A stretch of DNA of 64,000 bases from an uncultured Clostridia bacterium (lineage in GTDB: Bacteria > Bacillota > Clostridia > Oscillospirales > JAAYOS01). The notes under the pieces are model-generated. The model was given only the letters and a program-made list of their open reading frames with translations, was not told the origin of the DNA and searched no databases. Position 1 is the first letter of the stretch; every line of letters starts with the position of its first letter. Positions 147 to 52,812 of this stretch are shown piece by piece. Made by a program: the position numbers and the translations under genes. The stretch covers positions 49,834 to 113,833 of the forward strand of contig CANQDU010000004.1 in assembly GCA_947593925.1 (NCBI GenBank). Direction: 5' to 3'.

Positions 147-2147
147 GTGATGCGGAAAATGAAGAAAAAGATAACGGCGGAAACTCTCTGTGAGCTGAAG
201 TTCCCCTCCGAGCCGCGCTTCTCGCCGGACGGACGCTATACCGCGTTCGTCGTGAAGAACGTGAACGGCGAGCGCACCGGCTACTCGAGCGACATCTGGC
301 TCAGCGAGAACGGCTCCGCCCCGCGCAGGCTCACCGCCATGGGCGACGGCGGCTCCTTCTGCTGGTCGCCGGAGGGGAAGATACTCTTCTCCGCCTCGCG
401 CACGCCGGAGGACAAGAAGCGCGCGGGCAAGGGCGAGAAGTTCACCTCCGTCTACGAGATCTCGCCCGACGGAGGCGAGGCGACGAAGGCGTTCACGCTC
501 GAGCACGCCGCAGGCGGGCTCCGCCACGTCGAGGGCAGCCTGTACCTCTTTACCGCCCGCACGGACGAGGCGTATCCCGAGGCGGGAAGCGACGGCTTTG
601 ACAAGGCGCTCGAGCAGTACAACTCCCCCGCCTACCGGGGCATTGAGGACACGCCGTTCTGGTCGAACGGCAGCGGCTTCACCGCCGGTATGCACAGCGT
701 CCTCTTCCTCTACGACCGCGAGAGCGGCAAAGAGACTCAGGTCACGCCGGAGGGCTTCGACGTCCGCTCGGTGTCCGCGAAGAACGGAAAGATAGTCTAC
801 ACCGGCTCGGCGCAGGGTCGCGTCCGCGACATGAGGATATCAGGCCTCTACCTCTATGGCATAGCCTCCGGGTCGACCGAGACGCTTATCGAGCCAGGAC
901 GTCTCAAGCTCGGCTTTGCCGAGCTTCGCGACTGCGGCGACGTCCTCCTCACCTGCACCGACGGTGCAAAGTACGGCGACACCGAGAGCGGCACGCTCCA
1001 CACTCTCGACATTGCGACAAAAGAGCTCCGTCCGCTCGGAGACGGCGCGGTCGTACCGGTCGGCGCCGTCGGAAGCGACGCTCGCCTCGGCGGCGGCATG
1101 AAGACCAAAATCGTGGGCGACGATCTGTACTTCGTGAGCCTCGACCGCTACAAGAACTCCTTAAAGAAGGTCACTTCGGACGGCGGTATCGAGACCGTCC
1201 TCTCCGAGCGCTGCGGTATAGACTCGTTTGACATCTGCGGCGGCAGCGTAGCCTCGATAGAGCTCTCCCCCGTCCGCACGCCCGAGCTGTATATCGACGG
1301 CCGGCAGATAACCGACTTCTCCGCGCCGCTCGACGAGTACGAGACCGTCGCGCCGGAGTACATACCCTTCACGAACGCGGACGGGCTCGTCATAGACGGC
1401 TGGATGCTCCGCCCCGTGGGCTTCGAGGCGGGAAAGAAGTACCCGGCTCTTCTCGAGATACACGGAGGGCCGCGCACCGCGTTCGGCGAGGCGTTCTTCC
1501 ACGAGATGCAGGTTTTCGCAAACGCCGGTTACTTCGTCCTCTTCTGCAACCCGCGCGGCTCGGACGGGCGCGGAGATGCGTTCGCGGATATATGGGGCAA
1601 GTACGGCAGTATCGACTACGACGATATAATGGCGTTTGTTGACAGCGCCCTCGCGTGCGAGAAGTCGATAGACCCGGCGCGGCTCGGCGTCCTCGGCGGA
1701 AGCTACGGCGGCTACATGACAAACTGGATTATCGGCCACACCGACCGCTTCGCCGCCGCCGCAAGCCAGCGCTCCATAGCGAACTGGACCTCCTTCGAGT
1801 TCACAAGCGACATCGGCTTCAACTTCACCCGCATGAACCACCGCACCTCCACCCACGAGAACTGGGACTATCTCTGGGACATCTCCCCGCTCAAGTACGC
1901 GGATAAGGTGAAGACCCCGACGCTTTTCATACACTCGGACAATGACTTCCGCTGCTGGATGGTCGAGGGCATTCAGATGTTCACGGCGCTCCGCTTCCAC
2001 GGCGTCGAGAGCTGCCTCTGCCTCTTTGAGGGCGAGAACCACGAGCTTTCCCGCTCCGGCAAGCCGACTAACCGCATAAGCCGCATCGAGGAGATGCGGG
2101 AGTGGTTTGAAAAGTATCTTCATCCCGAGGAGGCGCAGGAGAAATGA
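147..2147 (+). CDS. S9 family serine peptidase (prolyl oligopeptidase / acylaminoacyl-peptidase type), paralog 1
   Basis: 666-aa ORF. N-terminal beta-propeller-like region plus C-terminal alpha/beta hydrolase with nucleophile motif GGSYGGYMTNW, and D/H context IHSDNDFRC...ENHELSR. Confidence 0.85.
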   Translation: MMRKMKKKITAETLCELKFPSEPRFSPDGRYTAFVVKNVNGERTGYSSDIWLSENGSAPRRLTAMGDGGSFCWSPEGKILFSASRTPEDKKRAGKGEKFTSVYEISPDGGEATKAFTLEHAAGGLRHVEGSLYLFTARTDEAYPEAGSDGFDKALEQYNSPAYRGIEDTPFWSNGSGFTAGMHSVLFLYDRESGKETQVTPEGFDVRSVSAKNGKIVYTGSAQGRVRDMRISGLYLYGIASGSTETLIEPGRLKLGFAELRDCGDVLLTCTDGAKYGDTESGTLHTLDIATKELRPLGDGAVVPVGAVGSDARLGGGMKTKIVGDDLYFVSLDRYKNSLKKVTSDGGIETVLSERCGIDSFDICGGSVASIELSPVRTPELYIDGRQITDFSAPLDEYETVAPEYIPFTNADGLVIDGWMLRPVGFEAGKKYPALLEIHGGPRTAFGEAFFHEMQVFANAGYFVLFCNPRGSDGRGDAFADIWGKYGSIDYDDIMAFVDSALACEKSIDPARLGVLGGSYGGYMTNWIIGHTDRFAAAASQRSIANWTSFEFTSDIGFNFTRMNHRTSTHENWDYLWDISPLKYADKVKTPTLFIHSDNDFRCWMVEGIQMFTALRFHGVESCLCLFEGENHELSRSGKPTNRISRIEEMREWFEKYLHPEEAQEK

Positions 2148-4063
2148 CTAAGAAGAGCGTAGCATACACCGATATATACGAATACTCGCAGGTCTCCGGC
2201 GCGAAGTGGTCGCCGGACGGCAGTTACGCCGTCTTCACGGAGAACCGCGCGGACGAGGAGAAGAACGGCTACAAAACCTGCCTCTGGCTCTACGACAAGG
2301 AGACGGGAAAGACGAAGCGCCTCACAAGCTCCGGCTCCGACCGCTTCGCGTACTGGGAGGAGGAGACCGGCGCCGTCGTGTTCGCGTCCGGCCGTCCCGG
2401 CGCGCCGAAGCGCGAGGGCGCGAAGCCGGAGGACCCCGTCACTCATCTCTTCCGCATATTCCCGGACGGCGGCGAGGCGGAGTTCTACTTCGACCTTCCT
2501 ACCGCCGGTTCCCTCATGCCGATAAAGGACGGGCTGTTCCTTGTCCGCTCCTTCGAGCACGCCCTGCCCGAGGACGAGCGTCCGAAGCGCAAGGGTTATC
2601 AGGTCTTTGACGAGATACCGTTCTGGATAAACGGCATGGGCGTCACGAACAAGAAGCGTCCCGCACTCTCGATATTCGACCGCGCGACGGGGAAGCTCAC
2701 CCGCTTTACCTCTCCCCTATTTGAGGCCGGCGGCGCGGACATATCCCCGGACAAGACAAAGATAGCCTTTACCGGCTCCGAGCTCATCGGCGCGAAGCGC
2801 CGTCAGGGCGGACTGTTCCTCTACGACATAGCTTCCGGCAAGACCGAGACGCTCATCGACCCGCTCACCTCCTGCGTGGACAAGGCGGCGTTCTGGGACG
2901 ACGGCACGCTCCTCATCGGGATAAATCCCTGCAAGGACAGCCACTCCGCCTCCGACCTCTACCGCTACGACCTCACGACTCGGAAGATGACGAAGTTCCC
3001 GCACGACCTCGCGATATACCAGACGGTGCGGGACGGCGGCCTCCTCTACTTCTGCCACGACGAGTGGAGCCACAGCCGCATCGGCGCGATGAACAGCGCG
3101 GGCGAGATAGTGTATTCGCTCTCGACGCCCGGCAGCGTCACCGGCTTCGACGTAAAGGACGGAGAGATAGTCCTCACCGGCGACCGTCCGAACGGGATGC
3201 AGGAGTTCGGAAGGGTCGCGGACGGCGCGGTCGAGTGGATAAGCGCGATAAACGACGGATATGTCGCCTCGCACGAGATAATCCCCGCCGAGCGCTTCAC
3301 CTTCACGAACTCGGACGGCGTGGAGATCGAGGGCTTTGTCATAAAGCCCGCCGGCTGGGAGAAGGGCGGCTCGTACCCCGGCCTTCTCGAGATACACGGA
3401 GGACCGAAGGCCGCCTACAACGTCGCCTACAACCACGAGATGCAGGCGTACGCGGCGCAGGGGTACTACGTCTTCTTCTGCAACCCGCGCGGGTCGAGCG
3501 GACGGACAAGCGAGTTTGCCGACGTCACCGGCAAGCTCGGCACTATTGACTACCGCGACGTCATGGAGTTCACGGACGAAGTCCTCGCCCGCGAGCCCGA
3601 GCTTGACGAAAAGCGGCTCGGCGTCCTCGGCGGTAGCTACGGCGGCTTCATGACGAACTGGATAATCGGCCACACGAACCGCTTCGCCGCCGCCGCAAGC
3701 CAGCGCTCCATCTCGAACTACTTCACGAAATGTCTCACGACCGACATCGGCCACTACCACAACCTCACCCAGATGGAGACCGACCCGTGGCAGGGCGCGG
3801 ATGTGTTCTGGGAGCACTCGCCGCTGAAGTACGCGGACAAGTGCGTCACCCCGACGATATTCATCTGCTCCGACCACGACTTCCGCTGCTGGTTCGCGGA
3901 GGGCATACAGATGTACAACGCGATACGCCGCAACGGCGTGGACGCGCGGCTCTGCATCTTCAAGGACGAGAACCACGAGCTCTCGCGCTCCGGCAAGCCG
4001 AAGAACCGCATTTCCCGCCTCGACGAGATGCTGAAGTGGTTTGACAGATACCTCAAGAAGTAA
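2144..4063 (+). CDS. S9 family serine peptidase, paralog 2
   Basis: 639-aa ORF. GGSYGGFMTNW, CSDHDFRCW and ENHELSRSGKP motifs are colinear with the upstream paralog. ATGA start/stop overlap at 2144-2147, RBS GCAGGAGA. Confidence 0.85.
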   Translation: MTKKSVAYTDIYEYSQVSGAKWSPDGSYAVFTENRADEEKNGYKTCLWLYDKETGKTKRLTSSGSDRFAYWEEETGAVVFASGRPGAPKREGAKPEDPVTHLFRIFPDGGEAEFYFDLPTAGSLMPIKDGLFLVRSFEHALPEDERPKRKGYQVFDEIPFWINGMGVTNKKRPALSIFDRATGKLTRFTSPLFEAGGADISPDKTKIAFTGSELIGAKRRQGGLFLYDIASGKTETLIDPLTSCVDKAAFWDDGTLLIGINPCKDSHSASDLYRYDLTTRKMTKFPHDLAIYQTVRDGGLLYFCHDEWSHSRIGAMNSAGEIVYSLSTPGSVTGFDVKDGEIVLTGDRPNGMQEFGRVADGAVEWISAINDGYVASHEIIPAERFTFTNSDGVEIEGFVIKPAGWEKGGSYPGLLEIHGGPKAAYNVAYNHEMQAYAAQGYYVFFCNPRGSSGRTSEFADVTGKLGTIDYRDVMEFTDEVLAREPELDEKRLGVLGGSYGGFMTNWIIGHTNRFAAAASQRSISNYFTKCLTTDIGHYHNLTQMETDPWQGADVFWEHSPLKYADKCVTPTIFICSDHDFRCWFAEGIQMYNAIRRNGVDARLCIFKDENHELSRSGKPKNRISRLDEMLKWFDRYLKK

Positions 4064-4113: not shown

Positions 4114-4197
4114 CAAAAAAAAATTATTACGCTCCGGGTGCGACCCCGGCGCTTCAAAACCCCACTTACGGGGTGAGAACGAAAGGAGGCGGTAAGC

Positions 4198-5833: not shown

Positions 5834-5953
5834 TATCATACCTTTGTGTGGGGTTCTTTTTTTGTGTGCAAAAAAAGCTGCCGACAGGCTTTTTTCCATG
5901 CGGAAATCCCCCGCTCCAAAGGGAGGCAAATTTTTTAAGGAGGTGCCGCTAAT

Positions 5954-6122: not shown

Positions 6123-6377
6123 ATGGCTAAGGATAAGGAGAAGAAGCCGAATTTCTTCGTTCGCATCGGCAAGCGGATAGCCAAGTGGTTCCGCGAGCTG
6201 AAGAGCGAGCTGAAGAAGGTCGTCTGGCCGACCCCCAAGCAGACGGTAAACAACACCGCCGTCGTCATCGTGGTGTGTGTTCTTGTCGGAGCCGTCATCG
6301 CACTGTTCAGTCTTGCCGCGTCCGAGGGCGTTTCACTTTTGATAAACCTCGTCAATCCCGGCGCGGGCGTCGCTTAA
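6123..6377 (+). CDS. secE: Preprotein translocase subunit SecE
   Basis: 84 aa. WFRELKSELKKVVWPTPKQT followed by a single TM. Conserved position between rpmG and nusG. Confidence 0.85.
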   Translation: MAKDKEKKPNFFVRIGKRIAKWFRELKSELKKVVWPTPKQTVNNTAVVIVVCVLVGAVIALFSLAASEGVSLLINLVNPGAGVA

Positions 6378-8229: not shown

Positions 8230-8258
8230 TTGACATAAGTCTTCTGAGGCGCTATAAT
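8230..8258 (+). promoter_or_regulatory. Sigma-A promoter for rplJ-rplL
   Basis: TTGACA (8230-8235), 17 nt, TATAAT (8253-8258). Confidence 0.7.
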
Positions 8259-8264
8259 AACGTA

Positions 8265-8400
8265 GTGTTCCGCAGACAGCAGGAGACCTTCGGGTCGCAA
8301 ACGGTTCGGCCGTCCCGCCGAGGAAGCGCCTGAATGTAAAGCATTTCTGCGCCCCTGTGTGTGAACACGGGGGCGTTTTCATTGCCCCGTATCCTAATCC
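8265..8400 (+). ncRNA. Ribosomal protein L10 leader (autoregulatory 5' UTR) with attenuator hairpin
   Basis: Structured ~135-nt leader between the promoter and rplJ. It ends in hairpin CGCCCCTGTGT/ACACGGGGGCG (8350-8375) plus TTTT, the position and style expected for the Firmicute L10 leader. Family assignment is not computationally verified. Confidence 0.5.
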
Positions 8401-9035: not shown

Positions 9036-9413
9036 ATGGCAAGCGAAAAGGTAACTGCTATCATTGAAGAAATCAAGAATCTGACCGTTCTCGAACTGTC
9101 GGATATGGTTCACGAGCTCGAAGAGGTATTCGGCGTTTCCGCCGCTGCCGCTGCCGTCGCGGCTCCCGCCGCCGGCGCCGCCGCTCCCGCCGCCGAGGAG
9201 AAGACCGAGTTTGACGTCGTTCTCGCCGAGGTCGGCGCGAACAAGATCGCCGTCATCAAGGTCGTCCGTGAGGTCACCGGTCTCGGCCTGAAGGAAGCCA
9301 AGGAAGTCGTTGACAACGCTCCGAAGGCCGTCAAGGAAGGCGCGAGCAAGGAAGACGCCGAGGCCATCAAGGCCAAGCTCGAAGAGGCCGGCGCAAAGGT
9401 CGAGCTCAAGTAA
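9036..9413 (+). CDS. rplL: 50S ribosomal protein L7/L12
   Basis: 125 aa. Ala-rich hinge and C-terminal domain [19 protein letters not shown]...EAGAKVELK. Confidence 0.97.
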
Positions 9414-9428
9414 GTTACATTGGTTTGT

Positions 9429-9462
9429 AAAACATCCGCAGGCGTTGCCTGCGGATGTTTTT
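9429..9462 (+). terminator. rplL terminator (copy 1 of a triplicated hairpin)
   Basis: AACATCCGCAGGC-GTT-GCCTGCGGATGTT followed by TTT. Confidence 0.85.
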
Positions 9463-9464
9463 GT

Positions 9465-9760
9465 ATGGCCTCGGCGTCTTCCGGCGGGGCGAAGCCCCGC
9501 CCCGCGCTTATGCGCGGTTAAAGTTGTTTGCCACAGGCAAACAACTTTGCGTAGGGGCGATTCATTCGCCCCGAGCATTTCAATCGGAAGGGTTCCCAAA
9601 AAGTCCACAGGACTTTTTGCGGCGTCAGCCGCAAACCGCGCCTGTTCGCGCGGTTGAAGTTGTCGGCAAAGCCGACAACTTCGCGCAGGGGCGATTCATT
9701 CGCCCCGAGCATTTCAATCGGAAGGGTTCCCAAAAAGTCTTTTAGACTTTTTGGGAATTC
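9465..9760. repeat. Hairpin array inserted between the two rplL-3' copies; contains two tandem ~135-bp units
   Basis: Units start at 9512 and 9648 and share an identical 52-nt core AGGGGCGATTCATTCGCCCCGAGCATTTCAATCGGAAGGGTTCCCAAAAAGTC. Flanking hairpins differ by compensatory changes: AAAGTTGTTTGCC-ACA-GGCAAACAACTTT vs GAAGTTGTCGGC-AAA-GCCGACAACTTC. Confidence 0.85.
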
Positions 9761-9821
9761 AGACGCCGAGGCCATCAAGGCCAAGCTCGAAGAGGCCGGC
9801 GCCAAGGTCGAGCTCAAGTAA
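9761..9821 (+). pseudogene. Orphan duplicate of the last 19 codons of rplL
   Basis: Reads ...[19 protein letters not shown] with no start codon or RBS. It is part of the 408-bp-period duplication. Confidence 0.8.
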
Positions 9822-10024
9822 GTTACATTGGTTTGCGAAACATCCGCAGGCAATGCCTGCGGATGTTTTTGTGTCCGAAATTTGATATATTATCTTAACC
9901 TTCGGTGGATTTCTTCACATTCCGGTAGTATAATAGTCTTAGAGCAAATCTTTCCATGACGATAAGAATAAGTAGTACCGAATGGATGTCTGCCGCACAA
10001 ATCGAGTATCAGCGAGGTTATGAA

Positions 10025-10552
10025 ATGAAGCTGTTTGTTTCTTTTTCGGCAAGAAAAACCGGTAATTGTGCACAGATTATTGATTATCTGAAAACGCCGC
10101 AGGATAAAGTGATTTATTACGCGGATTTGAACGCACACGGATGCAGCGATTGCGGTTATGAGTGTTTCAAAACACAATGCCGCTATCGGGACGATGACGT
10201 TTACCGCCTTTACAGCAGCTTTGCCGACTACGAAAAAGTAATTCTGCTTGTTCCGATGTACTGCGGAAATCCTTCCTCCCTGTATTTTGGCTTTAACGAA
10301 AGAAGTCAGGACTTTTTCATGCACCATGAAAACGAATATACGTCTTTTGTAGAGAGGCTGTTTGTCATCGGCGTCTACGGAAGCAGGAAAGAATCGCCGG
10401 ATTTCATAGGGTGCTTTGAAAAATGGTTTGAGGGAACACCTTACCGGCATCATATTCTGGGGATCGAGCGTCACTTGTACCGGCAGACAATGACAGACAG
10501 CGTAACAGATATTGAACCGGTCAAAGCGGCGCTGCGTGGTTTTATACGGTAA
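10025..10552 (+). CDS. Flavodoxin-like fold / NAD(P)H-dependent FMN reductase-type (iron-sulfur flavoprotein-like) protein
   Basis: The likely start is ATG 10025 (MKLFVSFSARKTGNC...) after GAGG, not the track start 9956. SxRKxGNC P-loop-like motif, Cys cluster HGCSDCGYECFKTQC, and LLVPMYCGNPSS. Visibly AT-richer codon usage than the neighbours. Confidence 0.55.
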   Translation: MKLFVSFSARKTGNCAQIIDYLKTPQDKVIYYADLNAHGCSDCGYECFKTQCRYRDDDVYRLYSSFADYEKVILLVPMYCGNPSSLYFGFNERSQDFFMHHENEYTSFVERLFVIGVYGSRKESPDFIGCFEKWFEGTPYRHHILGIERHLYRQTMTDSVTDIEPVKAALRGFIR

Positions 10553-10602
10553 AGTCCCGTTTGTTGAGGCGAGGTATCGCTTTTTGTAAAGGAGAAGATG
10601 TT

Positions 10603-10806
10603 ATGCCGTTTATGACGCCAATGGCATTGATGCGCAAAAATCTGATAATAAAGAAGCTCAGGGCATGCGGCGCTGTCTCGGAAGAGTCTGCAAAATCTCT
10701 GGCCGAAGCGGGCGTTATAAACCCGGACGGCTTTAAGCGCATAACCGACCGGCTTGTCGAAACCGGCAGCATCCACCGCACTTCCGGCGGCAGATATTAT
10801 GTGTAA
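10603..10806 (+). CDS. Small hypothetical protein (67 aa), possibly winged-helix-like
   Basis: ATG 10603 follows AAAGGAGAA. MPFMTPMALMRKNLIIKKLRACGAVSEESAKSLAEAGV...GSIHRTSGGRYYV. No family recognised with certainty. Confidence 0.45.
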   Translation: MPFMTPMALMRKNLIIKKLRACGAVSEESAKSLAEAGVINPDGFKRITDRLVETGSIHRTSGGRYYV

Positions 10807-10810
10807 CGTA

Positions 10811-10844
10811 AAAACATCCGCAGGCAGCGCCTGCGGATGTTTTT
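10811..10844. terminator. Bidirectional terminator (copy 3 of the rplL terminator hairpin)
   Basis: AACATCCGCAGGC-AGC-GCCTGCGGATGTT flanked by an A-run and a T-run. It lies between the small ORF (+) and the MATE gene (-). Confidence 0.8.
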
Positions 10845-10887: not shown

Positions 10888-12267
10888 TCAGCTCTCCGCC
10901 GTCATTTCGCTTTCGGTCCTCGTGAGGTTTTTCAGCCACTTATACTTTCCGAACCGCGCCGCGACGAACGGCAGCTTCACAAACTCGTCCATGCACAGCA
11001 CGACGTACACGGCTACCGGCGGCCATCTCCACACGAACGCGGCGAAGAACCCGAGCGGCAGCACCACTCCCCACATCGCGGCGGCGTCGCATATCAGTCC
11101 GAACCTCGTGTCCCCGCCGGCGGCGAAGACGCCGCTCACCATGCTCGAGTTGAACGACTTTCCTATGCAGTACACGGCGTTCACGACGAGCATCCATCCG
11201 AACAGCCGCGCGACCTCCCCGTCCGGCTTCGCTACTGCGAGGCAGGGACGGTAGAGCAGGAGGAGGACGAGCCCGCTCGCCGCGCCGAATAGAAGCGACC
11301 ACGCGAATATCTTCGAGCCCATCCAACGCGCTCCTTCGAGGTCGTCCTTACCGAGCGCGTTGCCTATCATGATGCTTCCCGCCGTGCCGAGTCCGCCGCA
11401 CCCGACGATGACGAGGCTGCGGAGCGTGCTCGCGAGCGAGTTCGCCGCGACGACGTCCGAGCCGATGTGACCCATTATCGCGGCTATCGCGGCCGTCGCT
11501 CCGCCCCAGATGAGATAGTTCATCTGCACGGGAAGCGTACACTTCCGGAAGTCCCTCGAGAGCCACTTCTCGGTGGACACGCACGCCCGGAGGTCTAGGC
11601 GCGCTCCCCTGCCCCGCGCGGCGAAGGCAAGGCAGAACGCCGTCTCAAGTATCCTCGCGAGCGACGTCGCGCCCGCCACGCCGGAGAGCGCGGCGGATTC
11701 GTTTCCGGGAAACAGAAGATATATCGCGGCGGCGTTCAGCGCGACGTTGCAGATGAGGCAGGACGCGGAGATCTGCGCGCAGAGCTTCGTCTCGCCGACG
11801 CTCCGCATGACGGCGAGCACCATCTGCGACACGCCCATCATCAGATAGCTCACGCTCACCCAGCGAAGGTAGCCCGCACCAAGGGTTATCAGCCGCGCGT
11901 CGTCGGTAAATATCCGCATCAGCATCTGAGGGATGCAGAGCGCCGCGAGGAAGAACAATACGGAGATGACGCAGGAATACCTCAGCGCAAGTCCCTGAAC
12001 CTTCTCTATCGTGGCGGTGTCGTCCTTTCCCCGGTACTGCGCCGCGAGGACCGACGCGCCGGTCGAGAGTCCGAAGTAGAAAAGCGTCAGCACGAACGTG
12101 ACCTGTCCCGCGAGGGACGACGCCGAGAGCGCGTCCCGGCTGACGCCGGAGAGCATCAGCACGTCCGCCGTGCTCACCACCGCGCTGATGAGGTTCTGGA
12201 ACACTATCGGAAGCATCAGTTTCTTCAAGTCACGAAAAAATACCTTTTTGTCTGTTGCGGCGTCCAT
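10888..12267 (-). CDS. MATE family efflux transporter
   Basis: 459 aa, about 12 TM. N-terminus FFRDLKKLMLPIVFQNLISAVVSTADVLMLS is typical of MatE. Confidence 0.9.
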   Translation of the reverse strand: MDAATDKKVFFRDLKKLMLPIVFQNLISAVVSTADVLMLSGVSRDALSASSLAGQVTFVLTLFYFGLSTGASVLAAQYRGKDDTATIEKVQGLALRYSCVISVLFFLAALCIPQMLMRIFTDDARLITLGAGYLRWVSVSYLMMGVSQMVLAVMRSVGETKLCAQISASCLICNVALNAAAIYLLFPGNESAALSGVAGATSLARILETAFCLAFAARGRGARLDLRACVSTEKWLSRDFRKCTLPVQMNYLIWGGATAAIAAIMGHIGSDVVAANSLASTLRSLVIVGCGGLGTAGSIMIGNALGKDDLEGARWMGSKIFAWSLLFGAASGLVLLLLYRPCLAVAKPDGEVARLFGWMLVVNAVYCIGKSFNSSMVSGVFAAGGDTRFGLICDAAAMWGVVLPLGFFAAFVWRWPPVAVYVVLCMDEFVKLPFVAARFGKYKWLKNLTRTESEMTAES

Positions 12268-15302: not shown

Positions 15303-15621
15303 CCCCGGAAACTCACCCGGTCGGATAACAGCTTTGTTTGGAACAAAGTGTCGCCCTGTTCTGGGGGTAATGGTGTTGTGTCTGTGTTGGGAGAGGGATT
15401 TTTAAGGGAGAGGGCGAAGCCCTCTCCCTTAATCGCGCTTTTTGATTACTTTTTGCGCGAGCAAAAAGTAATGCAGGGGTGCGGGGCGGCACAGCCCCGC
15501 AAGGTGTCGGTAGAGCTCTGCTCTACCTAGGGACGCGGGGGCTCGCCCCGCGAATGCTCGCGGGGCTTCCCCGCTATACGGGTGTGGGCTCTGCACGCTT
15601 GGTCGCGGGCTCCGCCCGCGA
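15303..15621 (+). repeat. Composite multi-hairpin repeat, copy 1
   Basis: About 90% identical over ~270 bp to the reverse complement of 25477-25748; its 3' half also matches 26138-26275. It consists of at least 6 consecutive perfect hairpins and abuts the stop codon of the M29 gene. Confidence 0.85.
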
Positions 15622-16830
15622 TTATATCGCGAAGTCTCCGTCCTTGAATATATCCACTTCCCTGCCGTCCTCGGTGGTGCCGACGATGTGCATATCCGGG
15701 GTGCCGATCATGAAGTCGACGTGGATGGTGCTGTCGTTAAACAGGTGCTCGCTTCCCTTAGGGCCGGCGCCGAGGCCGCGTCCGAGCGCGAGGTGGCAGC
15801 TCGCGTTCTCGTCTATGAGCGTGGTGTAATACACGAGGCCGCTCATGCTTATCGGGGAGTGGTACTCGACAAGCGCCGCCTCGCCGAGGTATCCGGCGTT
15901 CTCGTCGGTATGGATCAGATCCTCGAGCATCTCCTTGCCCTCGTTCGCGAGGACTTCGACGACCTTGCCGTCCTTGAAGCGGAAGCCGAAGTTCTCTATC
16001 TTCTTGCCGCCGAGGACGAGGGGACGGGAGGCGTAGACCACGCCGTTCGTCTCGAACTTGTTCGGCGTCGTGCAGATCTCCTCGGAGGGCATGTTCGCGT
16101 GGAACGGTATGAAGTCCTTCGGCATCTCGCGCTTGCCGAAGCCGAAGTGCGACCACGGCGTGAGGCCGACGGTGAGGTCGGTGCCGTTCGAGGCGGTGTA
16201 GTGCAGCTTCGTGAGCTTCAGCTCATCGACGGCGTTGCCGCGCGCGGACGTGCGGCGGCTCTTCTCCTCCCACGCGGCGACGGGGTCGTTGTCCTCGGTG
16301 ATGTAGCAGAGGCGCAGAACGGTCTCCCACAGCTCGTCAAGAGCCTCCTCGCCGGTCTTGCCGAGGATGTACTCCGCCCACTCTATCGTGGGGATCATCG
16401 CGATGAGCCACTGGCAGTGCTTCTCGCGGCTCGCCTTGCGCATGATGTTCCGGACGGCGTCCACGTGCGCGAATATCGCGCTCGAGTTCTTCTCGGAGAC
16501 GCCCTCCATGAGCTTCGGGTTCACGCCCTCGAGGCGGACGTAGCACGCGCCGTTATCGAGGTAGCCCTGGTGCATGGCGACCTCCCAGTCCTCCACGCGG
16601 CGGACGTCCTCGTCCGAGCGGTACTGCGCCGCGACCTTCATGTTCGGCAGGTCGAGGTAATGCACGACGACGTTCCCCGCGCCGAGCTTGTAGCACTCCT
16701 CCGCGAAGATGCTCGTGAACTGCCAGCCTTCTATCGCGGCCTCGACGAGCACGGTCTGTCCCTTCTGGACGTTCAGGCCGACGCGGGCGAGCGTGTACGC
16801 ATACTTGTGCTTCATTTTTTCGAGATCCAT
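15622..16830 (-). CDS. M29 family aminopeptidase (AmpS/PepS type)
   Basis: 402 aa. The N-terminus KYAYTLARVGLNVQKGQTVLV and overall length are typical of aminopeptidase II / peptidase M29. Confidence 0.85.
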   Translation of the reverse strand: MDLEKMKHKYAYTLARVGLNVQKGQTVLVEAAIEGWQFTSIFAEECYKLGAGNVVVHYLDLPNMKVAAQYRSDEDVRRVEDWEVAMHQGYLDNGACYVRLEGVNPKLMEGVSEKNSSAIFAHVDAVRNIMRKASREKHCQWLIAMIPTIEWAEYILGKTGEEALDELWETVLRLCYITEDNDPVAAWEEKSRRTSARGNAVDELKLTKLHYTASNGTDLTVGLTPWSHFGFGKREMPKDFIPFHANMPSEEICTTPNKFETNGVVYASRPLVLGGKKIENFGFRFKDGKVVEVLANEGKEMLEDLIHTDENAGYLGEAALVEYHSPISMSGLVYYTTLIDENASCHLALGRGLGAGPKGSEHLFNDSTIHVDFMIGTPDMHIVGTTEDGREVDIFKDGDFAI

Positions 16831-25397: not shown

Positions 25398-25750
25398 TGA
25401 GGGCGGAGGCCGCCTCTTCATGTGTGAGGCGCAGCCTCACCACCACCTTCGCGGGGCTGTGCCGCCCCGCACCATCTAGCGGGGAAGCCCCGCGGGCATT
25501 CGCGGGGCGGGTCCCCGCGTCCCTAGGTAGAGCAGAGCTCTACCGACACCTTCGCGGGGCTGTGCCGCCCCGCACCCCTGCGCTACTTTTTGCTCGCGCA
25601 AAAAGTAATCAAAAAGCGCGCTTAAGGGAGAGGGCTTTGCCCTCTCCCTTAAAAATCCCTCTCCCAATACAGACACAACACCATTACCCACATAACAGGG
25701 CACACTCTGTATCCAACAAATCTGTCATCCGACCGGGTGAGTTTCTGGGG
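25398..25750 (-). repeat. Composite multi-hairpin repeat, copy 2 (inverted relative to copies 1 and 3)
   Basis: The reverse complement of 25477-25748 aligns with 15303-15576. Extra hairpins at 25398-25476 include GAGGCGGCCTCCGCCTC-type and GTGAGGC-GCA-GCCTCAC. Confidence 0.85.
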
Positions 25751-25981
25751 AGAACATCAAACTTTTCCTCTTCATTCGACGACATCGAACAGTTCCTGCG
25801 TAGTAGATACAAAAAGTCCGGTCCTACGCTCACACTATAAGCGTAATGCAGAAGCTTTCCCGAGAAAACGGAACTTTCGGTTCTAGGGAAAAGTTTAAGC
25901 GGAGACGCTTGTACTAAGCTACGGACGGACGTCCTGCGTGGCAGAGACCTTCCGATTAAGGAAAGAGGGGTACAAAGGGGA

Positions 25982-26275
25982 GAAAACCGTTGGTTTTCTC
26001 CCCTTTGTGTGCTTTTTGGTTACTTTTTGCACAAGCAAAAAGTAACGCAAGGGTGTGGGGCTGCAAAGCCCCACATGGGGGCGCGGGGGCGCAGCCCCCG
26101 CAAACTGCCCGTGAGGCTCTGCCTCACTCAGGGACGCGGGTCTCGCCCCGCGAATGCTCGCGGGGCTTCCCCGCTATACGGGTGTGGGCTTCGCCCGCTC
26201 GGTCGCGGGGCTTCCCCGCCGGATGGGTGTGGGCTCTGCCCACTTGGGTGCGGGCTCCGCCCGCGGATTTGACCG
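25982..26275 (+). repeat. Composite multi-hairpin repeat, copy 3 (diverged; structure conserved)
   Basis: Same order of hairpin modules as copy 1, but several stems carry compensatory substitutions. The 3' part (26138-26200) is nearly identical to 15529-15598. There is an internal tandem duplication of TCGCGGGGCTTCCCCGC...GGGTGTGGGCT. Confidence 0.8.
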
Positions 26276-26331: not shown

Positions 26332-27006
26332 ATGGCATACAGAATTTTGATAGCGGACGACGAGGAGATGCTCGTGCGCGTCCTCCGGGAGCATCTGGAG
26401 CGCGAGGGCTACGCCGTCTCCGTCGCGGAGAACGGCGCGCAGGCGCTCGACCGTCTGAACCTGCGTCCCGACCTCATCCTTCTCGACATAAACATGCCGG
26501 GGCTCGGCGGTCTCGAGCTCTGCCGCATGATACGCGACGCTGTGAGCTGCCCCATCATCTTCCTCACCGCGCGGATAACCGAGGCCGACAAGGTGCGCGG
26601 CTTCCGCGCCGGCGGCGACGACTACATCACAAAGCCGTTCGGCCTGCAGGAGCTCTCGGCGCGGATAGCGGCGCACCTCCGCCGGGACGAGCGGGTGAAA
26701 AGCGCCGGGAGTCTCGTGTCCTCCCACGGGCTCATCGTTGACCTCGCGGGCCGCAGAGTGCTCTGGAACGGCGGCGAGATACGCTTCTCTAAGCGGGAAT
26801 TTGACATCATCGAGTTCCTCATAACCAATAAGAACCAGATTTTCGACCGCGAGAGGATGTACGAGCTTGTCTGGGGACTCGATGCGGAGGGCGACAGCAG
26901 CGTGATAAAGGAGCACGTCCGCAAGATACGCGCAAAGCTCCTCGAGGCCACCGGGGAGGAGTTTATCGAGACGGTCTGGGGGATGGGATACAGATGGATA
27001 AAATGA
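26332..27006 (+). CDS. OmpR/PhoB family response regulator
   Basis: 224 aa. Receiver domain (ILIADDEE...DLILLDINMPGLGG) and winged-helix trans_reg_C (TVWGMGYRW). Confidence 0.9.
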   Translation: MAYRILIADDEEMLVRVLREHLEREGYAVSVAENGAQALDRLNLRPDLILLDINMPGLGGLELCRMIRDAVSCPIIFLTARITEADKVRGFRAGGDDYITKPFGLQELSARIAAHLRRDERVKSAGSLVSSHGLIVDLAGRRVLWNGGEIRFSKREFDIIEFLITNKNQIFDRERMYELVWGLDAEGDSSVIKEHVRKIRAKLLEATGEEFIETVWGMGYRWIK

Positions 27007-35736: not shown

Positions 35737-35942
35737 CAATCGGATCACTCCTCCCCTGTCGTATACGGTATTCGGGGAAGAGGGGCAATATTCGTTTCGC
35801 GGGAAATCGCAGGAGCGGGCCTTGCCCGCTCCTTTACCAATTTCCCGCGAAGCCGCCGGACAGAGCGGAGCTCTGCCGGCGGCAACACTCCGCTCTGTCC
35901 GGCGGTCTCGCTGAAAATCGCGTCAGCGATTTTCGGCGAGAT

Positions 35943-52539: not shown

Positions 52540-52812
52540 AACCGAACAAGGCAAAAGGCTTTTGACGGGGAGGAGTACGTCGGTTATCCTCTTTCAGAGA
52601 CGGGGCGGAAGGTGCAAGCCCCGAGAGGATCGGCGGAAGGTCGCCCCCGAGCCCCGGAGCCGAAAGCGAAAGCAACTAAGCCCCGGCGGGTTCTCCCGTT
52701 ACAGAGAAGCGGCGTTTCTGCGCCGCGTGAGGTGCGCCGCATATTGCGGCGAATTTAGGTGGTACCGCGGTTCATCCGTCCTAAGCTGTGTGCTTTGGGC
52801 GGCTATTTTTTT
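52540..52812 (+). ncRNA. T-box riboswitch leader (valine-specific, controls valS)
   Basis: Conserved T-box sequence AATTTAGGTGGTACCGCG at 52752-52769, AGAGA motif in Stem I (~52596), and terminator CCGTCCTAAGC-TGTGT-GCTTTGGGCGG (52776-52802) plus a U-tract to 52812. The candidate specifier GUC at 52640-52642 is a tentative placement. Confidence 0.85.

Follow-up and report, generated by a model that had tools for sequence, protein, structure and literature searches.

Why does the 3' end of rplL, the gene of ribosomal protein L7/L12, stand twice together with its terminator around an array of perfect hairpins, and why does an inverted piece of the same gene lie between the two copies? The locus is part of a stretch of 64,000 nucleotides from an uncultured Clostridia bacterium of the rabbit gut (contig CANQDU010000004.1, positions 49,834 to 113,833 of the forward strand), which is called the window throughout. 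An earlier note, made from the sequence alone, had taken the structure for the footprint of an insertion or a template switch. Here, we find that the block of inverted segment, hairpin array and second rplL tail with terminator is an unstable structural polymorphism, unusual but explicable, rather than a new kind of system. It probably originated, although we say so with reserve, in a single multi-step template-switch event at the rplL terminator, and later changed its copy number by recombination.

Architecture of the block

The features of the locus are collected in Table 1. As the earlier note had described, rplL itself is intact, and its 3' end lies in the first of two direct repeats with a spacing of 408 bp (9353-9464 and 9761-9872). 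They are 112 nt long and 96% identical, with 5 mismatches. In copy 1, the trailer after the rplL stop comprises 51 nt and holds the terminator hairpin (9429-9461), while copy 2 creates an orphan tail of 19 codons plus stop (9762-9821), again as claimed. The 296 bp between the repeats consist of an inverted 18-mer and a hairpin array of 278 bp. An exact inverted copy of the start of the duplication had been reported as well; it is present, but with a length of 18 nt instead of 12, as 9465-9482 is the exact reverse complement of 9350-9367. The same stretch also takes part in a perfect 15-nt inverted repeat with 9761-9775, the start of copy 2.

Table 1. Features of the rplL locus (coordinates of the window; ORF, open reading frame; CDS, coding sequence; UTR, untranslated region; CANRIN, a related genome described in the text; L numbers, fetched loci)
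Feature	Coordinates	Strand	Basis or remark
rplL (L7/L12) CDS, intact	9036..9413	+	ORF; exact protein on 23 public contigs; Pfam Ribosomal_L12
rplL segment GGAAGACGCCGAGGCCAT, source of the inverted 18-mer	9350..9367	+	inverted repeat of 18 nt, 100%; duplication begins 3 nt inside the segment
Direct repeat copy 1: last 61 nt of rplL, 3' UTR and terminator T1, end TTTTTGT	9353..9464	+	
Terminator hairpin T1: perfect 15-bp stem, loop GTT, then T-run	9429..9461	+	
Inverted copy of rplL 9350-9367 (junction filler), ATGGCCTCGGCGTCTTCC	9465..9482	+	outside the repeat family; identical in CANRIN, L060, L061 and L065
Two-unit hairpin array, 10 perfect hairpins, member of the dispersed family	9483..9760	+	family BLAST coverage, covariance-model matches
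Array hairpins 1-5	9483-9501, 9502-9517, 9520-9548, 9554-9572, 9597-9619	+	
Array hairpins 6-10	9616-9635, 9634-9655, 9656-9682, 9688-9706, 9727-9757	+	
Extra 134-bp unit, missing from the one-unit array of the sister species	9606..9739	+	alignment, period 134; repeat frame arbitrary
Direct repeat copy 2: orphan rplL tail and terminator T2	9761..9872	+	
Orphan rplL tail	codons 9762-9818, stop 9819-9821	+	19 codons and stop, in the rplL frame
Terminator hairpin T2, loop AAT	9838-9868	+	
Low-GC (45%) two-ORF cassette between T2 and T3	9873..10810	+	in all relatives; ORFs 9956/9986-10552 and 10561-10806
T3, third copy of the rplL terminator hairpin, loop AGC	10811..10844	+	followed by GTCCGAAA, as after T2; convergent with MATE gene 10888-12267(-)

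Ten perfect hairpins with stems of 6-14 bp, among them GGCGGGGCGAAGCCCCGCC, CCGCGCTTATGCGCGG and AAAGTTGTTTGCC, are found in the array, where the earlier note had counted at least nine. They are organised in two tandem units, for which a length of about 135 bp had been given and which have a period of 134. The units share identical cores of 53 nt (9553-9605 and 9687-9739), and such a core match occurred in 0 out of 100 shuffles. The differences between the units had been read as compensatory. They are not compensatory evolution in place; the units are mosaics of hairpin variants that already existed in the family described below.

T1, T2 and T3 have the form of intrinsic terminators, with the stem CATCCGCAGGC/GCCTGCGGATG followed by TTTTT, 16 nt past the rplL stop. 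The rplL terminator is absent from the listing of a simple terminator scanner, presumably because the A/T extension of the stem takes up most of the T-run. The idea that the terminator hairpin is itself a dispersed repeat was rejected, as no copy of it turned up away from the rplL locus in the fetched loci. Folded as RNA, 9340-9885 reaches a z of -17.5 against shuffles; in the predicted minimum-energy fold, the 18-mer pairs over a long range with its partner in rplL, and the resulting helix encloses T1.

Upstream of the block lies the gene row rpmG-secE-nusG-rplK-rplA-rplJ-rplL with an L10 leader. The cassette downstream of copy 2 has a GC content of 45%, compared with 61% for the window, and there is no Pfam hit on record for its two ORFs. 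Since the cassette and both flanking hairpins are kept in all relatives, the rplL terminator had already been duplicated once around inserted DNA before the block arose. Longer public 'L7/L12' ORFs (P0001, P0002, P0006; 176-204 aa) were considered as read-through into such an array and discarded, for they stem from unrelated organisms and carry internal duplications. They duplicate part of the protein and are either real in-gene duplications or strain-merging assemblies.

The array belongs to a dispersed family

Both units of the rplL array match a covariance model of the family, at 9501-9631 with 115 bits and at 9635-9765 with 148 bits. BLAST matches of the family cover 9488-9759 of the window, and coverage is 0 over 9465-9487. 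As the 18-mer is moreover found at rplL loci only, it represents local sequence and is not part of the family.

The search for the invariant core, which the earlier note had recommended, was run with a 22-mer and returned 44 exact sites in 42 stretches of GTDB genomes, all of them in three related rabbit-gut metagenome-assembled genomes (MAGs) labelled 'uncultured Clostridia'. With the covariance model, approximately 70 strong units were detected in approximately 340 kb of related loci, while the window contains only the two units at rplL. One strand scores strongly (100-155 bits) and the other weakly (20-35 bits). A 20-mer of the family gave 0 matches in metagenomes of the Joint Genome Institute (JGI) and in viral contigs, and a plasmid search with the array gave no match. 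Rfam scans at gathering and at permissive thresholds revealed nothing relevant; the best score in 9300-10000 was 21.5 bits against a threshold of 80.

Each unit has a fixed order of modules: a variable first hairpin, CCGCGCCkGTTCGCGCGG, a long hairpin, GCGCAGG, a further hairpin, a linker and a last hairpin. The long hairpin occurs with several alternative stems, e.g., TTGAAGTTGGCGGC..., TTAAAGTTGCTTGCC..., TCGATGTTGCC... and TTAAATTCGGCGC..., and the hairpin between GCGCAGG and the linker is GGCGGAATTCATTTCCGCC or GGGGCGATTCATTCGCCCC. The linker, GAGCATTTCAATCGGAAGGG, is an unpaired and invariant stretch of 20 nt, and the last hairpin has the form CTCCCA-stem-TGGGA. GCGTC and a hairpin precede 13 of 50 units outside rplL, and GCGTAG or GCGTCGA follows many units. 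Tags resembling GTAG and CGTC are missing from the other hairpins and from terminal units, and the outer ends of the arrays carry no conserved flanking tag.

Over 36 aligned units, 97.3% of the stem cells are paired, compared with 84% in shuffles and approximately 40% with slid partners, and in 21 of the 37 stem pairs both partners have changed. G-U pairs and A-C mismatches are similarly rare in the stems, and the units occur in both orientations relative to the neighbouring genes, so that nothing points to an RNA-specific constraint. The signal rather fits hairpins that would be maintained at the DNA level or on both strands. With gene and ORF calls that are approximate and based on GC content at third codon positions, the arrays lie between convergent genes in 15 cases, co-directional genes in 16 and divergent genes in 2.

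Arrays reach a length of 1.1 kb. ORF clustering over the 42 loci with their approximately 80 arrays yielded no repeated or multi-copy transposase-like ORF. Flank duplications are found at the rplL array only, and were therefore rejected as a general signature of the family.

Further arrays lie in the window at 15303-15630, 25398-25740 (an inverted copy of 15303-15630), 25980-26270 and 35796-35918; all arrays together make up approximately 2% of it. The earlier note had seen a resemblance in style between the rplL array and those at 15303, 25398 and 25982. The remark is justified, as the arrays share modules with arrays in related MAG loci; the window arrays are mosaics from one pool of hairpin modules, with those outside rplL built from other modules of it. 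Between two of them, 25740-25980 is a stretch without hairpins that is kept in relatives at another genomic position, downstream of an AraC-type gene (L001, approximately 9,960-10,300; L003, approximately 9,150-9,340), and has no Rfam match. It may represent an unannotated RNA or belong to a larger dispersed element.

A second observation concerns L044, where a perfect 45-nt inverted repeat (5876-5920 and 6237-6281) surrounds a terminator, an array and a terminator. It lies between two convergent paralogous genes and occurs nowhere else in the fetched loci. Simple paralogy was rejected as its source, since the 45-mer is perfect although the coding 3' ends have diverged strongly. Here, too, flank sequence may have been copied across an array in inverted orientation, which would make it a second such case.

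Empty, filled and amplified alleles in relatives

All data considered here are short-read metagenome assemblies. An exact lookup of the L7/L12 protein led to 23 contigs. Over 10,378 bp, one of these (L002, a 75-kb contig which cannot contain the window) matches at 100% identity and shows the same structure, and the downstream gene has the same allele in three further contigs. Empty sites, for which the earlier note had suggested to look in close relatives, do exist: in 8 contigs, which form three haplotype groups and share 91-97% identity with the window, a single rplL tail and terminator leads directly into the native downstream sequence.

A 96%-identical L7/L12 protein is encoded in the MAG CANRIN, a sister species (Lapin-008__bin30; upstream DNA identity 92.5%), and in two contigs of the European Nucleotide Archive (ENA). 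After rplL, these show the same junction as the window, TTTTTGT/ATGGCCTCGGCGTCTTCC/GGCGGGGC, and then an array with one unit of approximately 130 nt instead of two; the window array equals the CANRIN unit plus one extra unit of 134 bp. The CANRIN array leads into a second rplL tail and terminator via the same junction, ...TTTTTGGGAAT(A/T)C/AGACG. In the CANRIN-type contigs, the 18-mer, an array and a third tail follow the second terminator before the contig ends. Thus, blocks of inverted 18-mer, array and rplL tail with terminator stand here one after another, giving three rplL tails or more, and this block number is a lower bound. As copy-specific substitutions are reproduced in two samples (L059, L060), the tandem repeat is real. 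The rplL tail of L061 is chimeric, of the copy-1 type in its 5' part and of the copy-2 type in its 3' part, which is direct evidence of recombination between copies.

The junction of terminator, 18-mer and hairpin is also present in a third lineage, L065 (98% protein and 95.6% DNA identity), where its 3'-UTR haplotype is the one otherwise known from two empty alleles, L001 and L003. Filled and empty states are each found with either 3'-UTR haplotype (GGTTTG... or GTATC...). The more distant L066 and L062 have another terminator and no block.

Overall, a block with the same three junctions exists in at least three lineages; it is in tandem in one and missing from three others. The structure in the window is not an assembly artefact, because of the complete identity of L002, the downstream allele in three contigs and the lineage-specific variants of the same junctions in L059, L060 and L061 (all CANRIN) and L065. 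From the junctions shared with CANRIN and L065 it follows that the block is old and shared. The earlier interpretation thus holds in that an insertion with duplication took place, in which the array copies a dispersed element and the 18-mer is local filler, in keeping with a template switch, but the event was neither private to this strain nor recent. We infer that recombination at the 112-bp repeats keeps altering the copy number (0, 1 or at least 2). Revertants or secondary losses may thus account for the 'empty' alleles, which by themselves do not give the polarity of the event.

Several public short-read contigs end at or inside arrays or the rplL block, namely L053-L057 (upstream of the homologue of 26332-27006), L059-L061, L065 and L007 (downstream of rplL). 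Assemblies are thus broken up by the arrays, and any copy number is a lower bound. A presence/absence comparison at the array next to the response regulator gene 26332 was uninformative, as all contigs stop at the array.

The terminator loops of the locus vary while the stem is kept. In the window, the loop is GTT in T1 (9444-9446) and AAT in T2 (9852-9854), as the earlier note had observed. This difference is largely a loop flip that is polymorphic in single-copy relatives too, and the stem of T1 extends to 15 bp. Loop flips with a perfect stem are seen between the CANRIN copies (TGT in L059 3909-3911, ACA in 4183-4185) and among single-copy relatives (ATT and AAT in the terminators of L001, L003 and L004), in both cases as exact reverse complements.

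Origin of the block

The template-switch event with subsequent recombination, which we hold to be the probable origin, would have taken place once, either in an ancestor or in one lineage from which the block spread by homologous recombination. Replication- or repair-associated synthesis would have run as far as 9464, where the terminator ends, switched to the opposite strand for 18 nt (from 9367 to 9350), taken an array located elsewhere in the genome as its next template and continued from 9353, such that 112 nt were duplicated. In rplL, exit (9350) and re-entry (9353) are 3 nt apart, and the duplication ends at the foot of the terminator. With rplL and its terminator regenerated on both sides, the event would have been neutral or harmless and could persist. 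Later, unequal or intramolecular recombination at the 112-bp repeats would have added blocks, as in CANRIN, or removed them, as in the 'empty' alleles, and ectopic recombination with other family members would have changed the number of array units, which would account for the extra unit in the window. As this is the only one of approximately 80 arrays with duplicated flanks, it was a one-off event and not the normal insertion mode of the family. The block is probably without dedicated function, and the array, by analogy with other extragenic palindromes, most likely acts at the DNA or hairpin level, if at all.

At one of the junctions, the rplL antisense sequence GGCGTCTTCC shares the 5 nt GCGTC with the module that precedes some of the units outside rplL. 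GCGTC could have served as microhomology at the transition from the 18-mer to the array; the left flank of the donor would then read ...GCGTC(N)TTCCGGCGGGG. If the 18-mer is local filler, the donor array would not already carry ATGGCCTCG.

Several points weigh against this origin. Microhomology is visible neither at the junction of terminator and 18-mer nor at that of array and 9353. The donor array was not found, with partial matches of approximately 90-95% as the best in the fetched loci and 0 matches of a locus-specific 24-mer in JGI metagenomes, so that only one of the three switches can be checked. With 5 differences in 112 positions, the copies are roughly as far from each other as either is from the L004 allele, and thus age and polarity (gain or loss) are not fixed by the sequence. 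Finally, the same terminator is also duplicated around the older low-GC cassette, which hints at a site-specific property of this hairpin beyond a generic template-switch model, and a hairpin-specific enzyme might have had a part, given that the search for one covered the fetched loci and not whole genomes.

Such an enzyme is central to an alternative which we consider unlikely. The array would be a non-autonomous mobile element moved by a tyrosine transposase associated with repetitive extragenic palindromes (REPs), i.e., a RAYT, or by a Y1 HUH transposase of the IS200/IS605 type. As pseudo-end, the enzyme would have used the terminator hairpin of rplL, the GACG/CGTC motif at 9354-9357, or both; aberrant strand transfers would then account for the duplication of 112 nt and for the inverted 18-mer. 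In its palindromes, copy number and 3'-extragenic location, the family indeed resembles REPs and bacterial interspersed mosaic elements (BIMEs), and GCGTC before the first hairpin (13 of 50 units outside rplL) and GCGTAG after many units recall the CGTC and GTAG tags of REPs (PMC3733652). GACG abuts both rplL breakpoints (9350 and 9353), and the end of the duplication at the foot of a perfect hairpin is in agreement with the idea. However, no repeated transposase-like ORF lies near the approximately 80 arrays, the other arrays have neither a flank duplication nor a conserved tag at their outer ends, and Y1 transposition makes neither target duplications nor inverted filler. Moreover, REPs of the CGTC type have no known transposase (PMC3733652).

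Quite unlikely, in our estimation, is a more general variant of template switching in which the rplL block is a preserved intermediate of the seeding and spread of arrays without a transposase. Replication would stall at perfect terminator hairpins, switch template, copy an array from another place and capture flank sequence in inverted orientation, whereby new long-range palindromes would arise, with the same hairpin as a recurrent hotspot. Two cases fit the seeding idea, the 18-mer described here and the perfect 45-nt inverted repeat around the array in L044, and the duplication of the terminator around inserted DNA on two occasions suggests the hotspot. In a stronger variant, the ordered five-hairpin unit with its invariant single-stranded linker of 20 nt may be the binding site or substrate of a hypothetical protein.

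A Campbell-type integration has, to our mind, a small probability. In that case, a circle with the array and the 112-bp rplL tail and terminator, e.g., excised from another strain, would have entered by a single homologous crossover, and the older cassette likewise. Both inserts are bracketed by direct repeats, copy 2 shares two of the 5 differing sites with the L004 allele, as expected for a copy from another strain, and recombination between copies is demonstrably active. Nevertheless, a molecule is required in which array, inverted 18-mer and rplL tail are already joined, which only moves the problem of origin and leaves the inverted 18-mer unexplained. For the cassette, the homology amounts to only approximately 45 nt.

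It is also improbable that the block is a selected trailer for the rplKAJL operon or the downstream gene, be it for redundant termination or insulation behind a very highly expressed operon, for protection against 3' exonucleases, or as an RNase III-type site in an 18-22 bp helix (9350-9371 with 9461-9482) of read-through RNA. The block does persist with identical junctions and an intact 18-mer in lineages of only approximately 92% identity, each block has an intact terminator, and the long-range helix is part of the predicted minimum-energy fold. Yet the block is missing from three close lineages with the same rplL protein, and its copy number is unstable. Orphan tails accumulate changes even in the partner of the 18-mer (GACGGC in CANRIN copy 2), and the two unit orientations together with G-U pairs no commoner than A-C mismatches give no sign of RNA-specific selection.

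A recent strain-private insertion, or an assembly artefact that merged two strain alleles through a repeat, is extremely improbable: relatives with empty sites exist, arrays do break short-read assemblies, and the 5 differences between the copies could be strain alleles, but the same junctions recur across several assemblies, samples and species, L059 and L060 share copy-specific single-nucleotide polymorphisms, and an 18-nt repeat and a 33-nt palindromic terminator should be too short for false joins at the usual large k.

Implications

The analysis adds a well-defined family of extragenic palindromic arrays, with unusually clean stem covariation, in an uncultured Clostridia lineage in which such elements are poorly described. 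The rplL locus provides a natural example of a complex rearrangement that an essential, highly expressed gene tolerated, since both its 3' end and its terminator had been regenerated. 'Empty sites' beside long direct repeats are no proof of a recent insertion. From a practical point of view, short-read assemblies break at the arrays, and the orphan gene tails to which arrays can give rise may be miscalled by annotation pipelines. If true, seeding by template switches would bear on how REP-like repeats without a transposase multiply.

Other features of the window

Two tandem paralogous genes of the peptidase S9 type occupy 147-2147 and 2144-4063, with a repeat spacing of 1934 and segments of 76-93% identity. 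Only two Rfam matches in the window are above threshold, the L10 leader upstream of rplJ (8252-8390) and a T-box leader (52552-52786).

Comparison with known systems

The closest described elements are the REPs and BIMEs of Proteobacteria, including REPs with GTAG and CGTC tags (Di Nocera et al. 2013, PMC3733652; Nunvar et al. 2010, PMC2817692). Like these, the family of the rplL array consists of many copies of short GC-rich palindromes in mosaic extragenic arrays with conserved linkers. The arrays lie mainly downstream of genes, next to terminators, in gaps between genes that mostly converge or run in the same direction; pairing is retained among stem variants, and the distribution is restricted to a lineage. 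In contrast to REPs and BIMEs, the unit is an ordered series of 4-5 different perfect hairpins (approximately 117-134 nt) with the invariant unpaired linker. Hairpin order is fixed and units follow each other head to tail, whereas BIMEs are built of single REPs that alternate in orientation. The host is an uncultured Clostridia lineage, and the words 'Firmicutes' and 'Clostrid' do not occur in the text of the 2013 survey (PMC3733652). Tags are not consistent, and in the 42 loci, as distinct from whole MAGs, neither a RAYT nor a repeated or transposase-like ORF cluster of a REPIN/RAYT system was seen. The family is therefore REP/BIME-like, but not a member of a described family.

Other classes of repeats were compared and rejected. 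For a MITE (miniature inverted-repeat transposable element), the only inverted termini (15-18 nt) are copies of rplL and not of the family, and the other arrays lack flank duplications. CRISPR arrays have repeats of 23-47 nt and unique spacers, whereas the period here is 117-134 nt and the variable parts are recurring palindromes shared between loci. A template/variable pair of a diversity-generating retroelement is not indicated, as A is involved in only 2 of the 5 differences and the neighbourhood has no reverse transcriptase ORF. Compared with integron attC sites, the hairpin halves stand in the order GTTGTTT...AAACAAC, opposite to that of R''/R', and the stems are perfect. A guide-RNA-like reading, with the array as scaffold and the 18-mer as guide in the manner of TnpB or IS110, fails since there is no nuclease or recombinase gene and other copies have no 'guides' derived from their flanks.

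Template switching at quasipalindromes is known from bacteria, and events of fork stalling and template switching (FoSTeS) or microhomology-mediated break-induced replication (MMBIR) come with templated insertions. The rplL block resembles such rearrangements in its several joined breakpoints, in an inverted segment from a few dozen bases away and an ectopic templated insertion, and in a re-entry within 3 nt of the exit, from which a tandem duplication results. It differs in that two of the three junctions show no evident microhomology, the event is deduced from a fixed, inherited allele, and the template is a member of a repeat family. Amplification by unequal homologous recombination is likewise a close parallel: the number of blocks varies by lineage, L061 is a recombinant, and loss restores an ancestral-looking site exactly. 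Here, however, the repeat includes the 3' end of an essential, highly expressed gene with its terminator, and a hairpin array separates the copies. Small inversions of hairpin loops, in which the loop flips between perfect inverted arms, are well known in plastid non-coding DNA. The rplL terminator loops behave alike, being exact reverse complements (TGT/ACA, ATT/AAT) on an unchanged stem, but here the flip occurs in a bacterial terminator and between paralogous copies.

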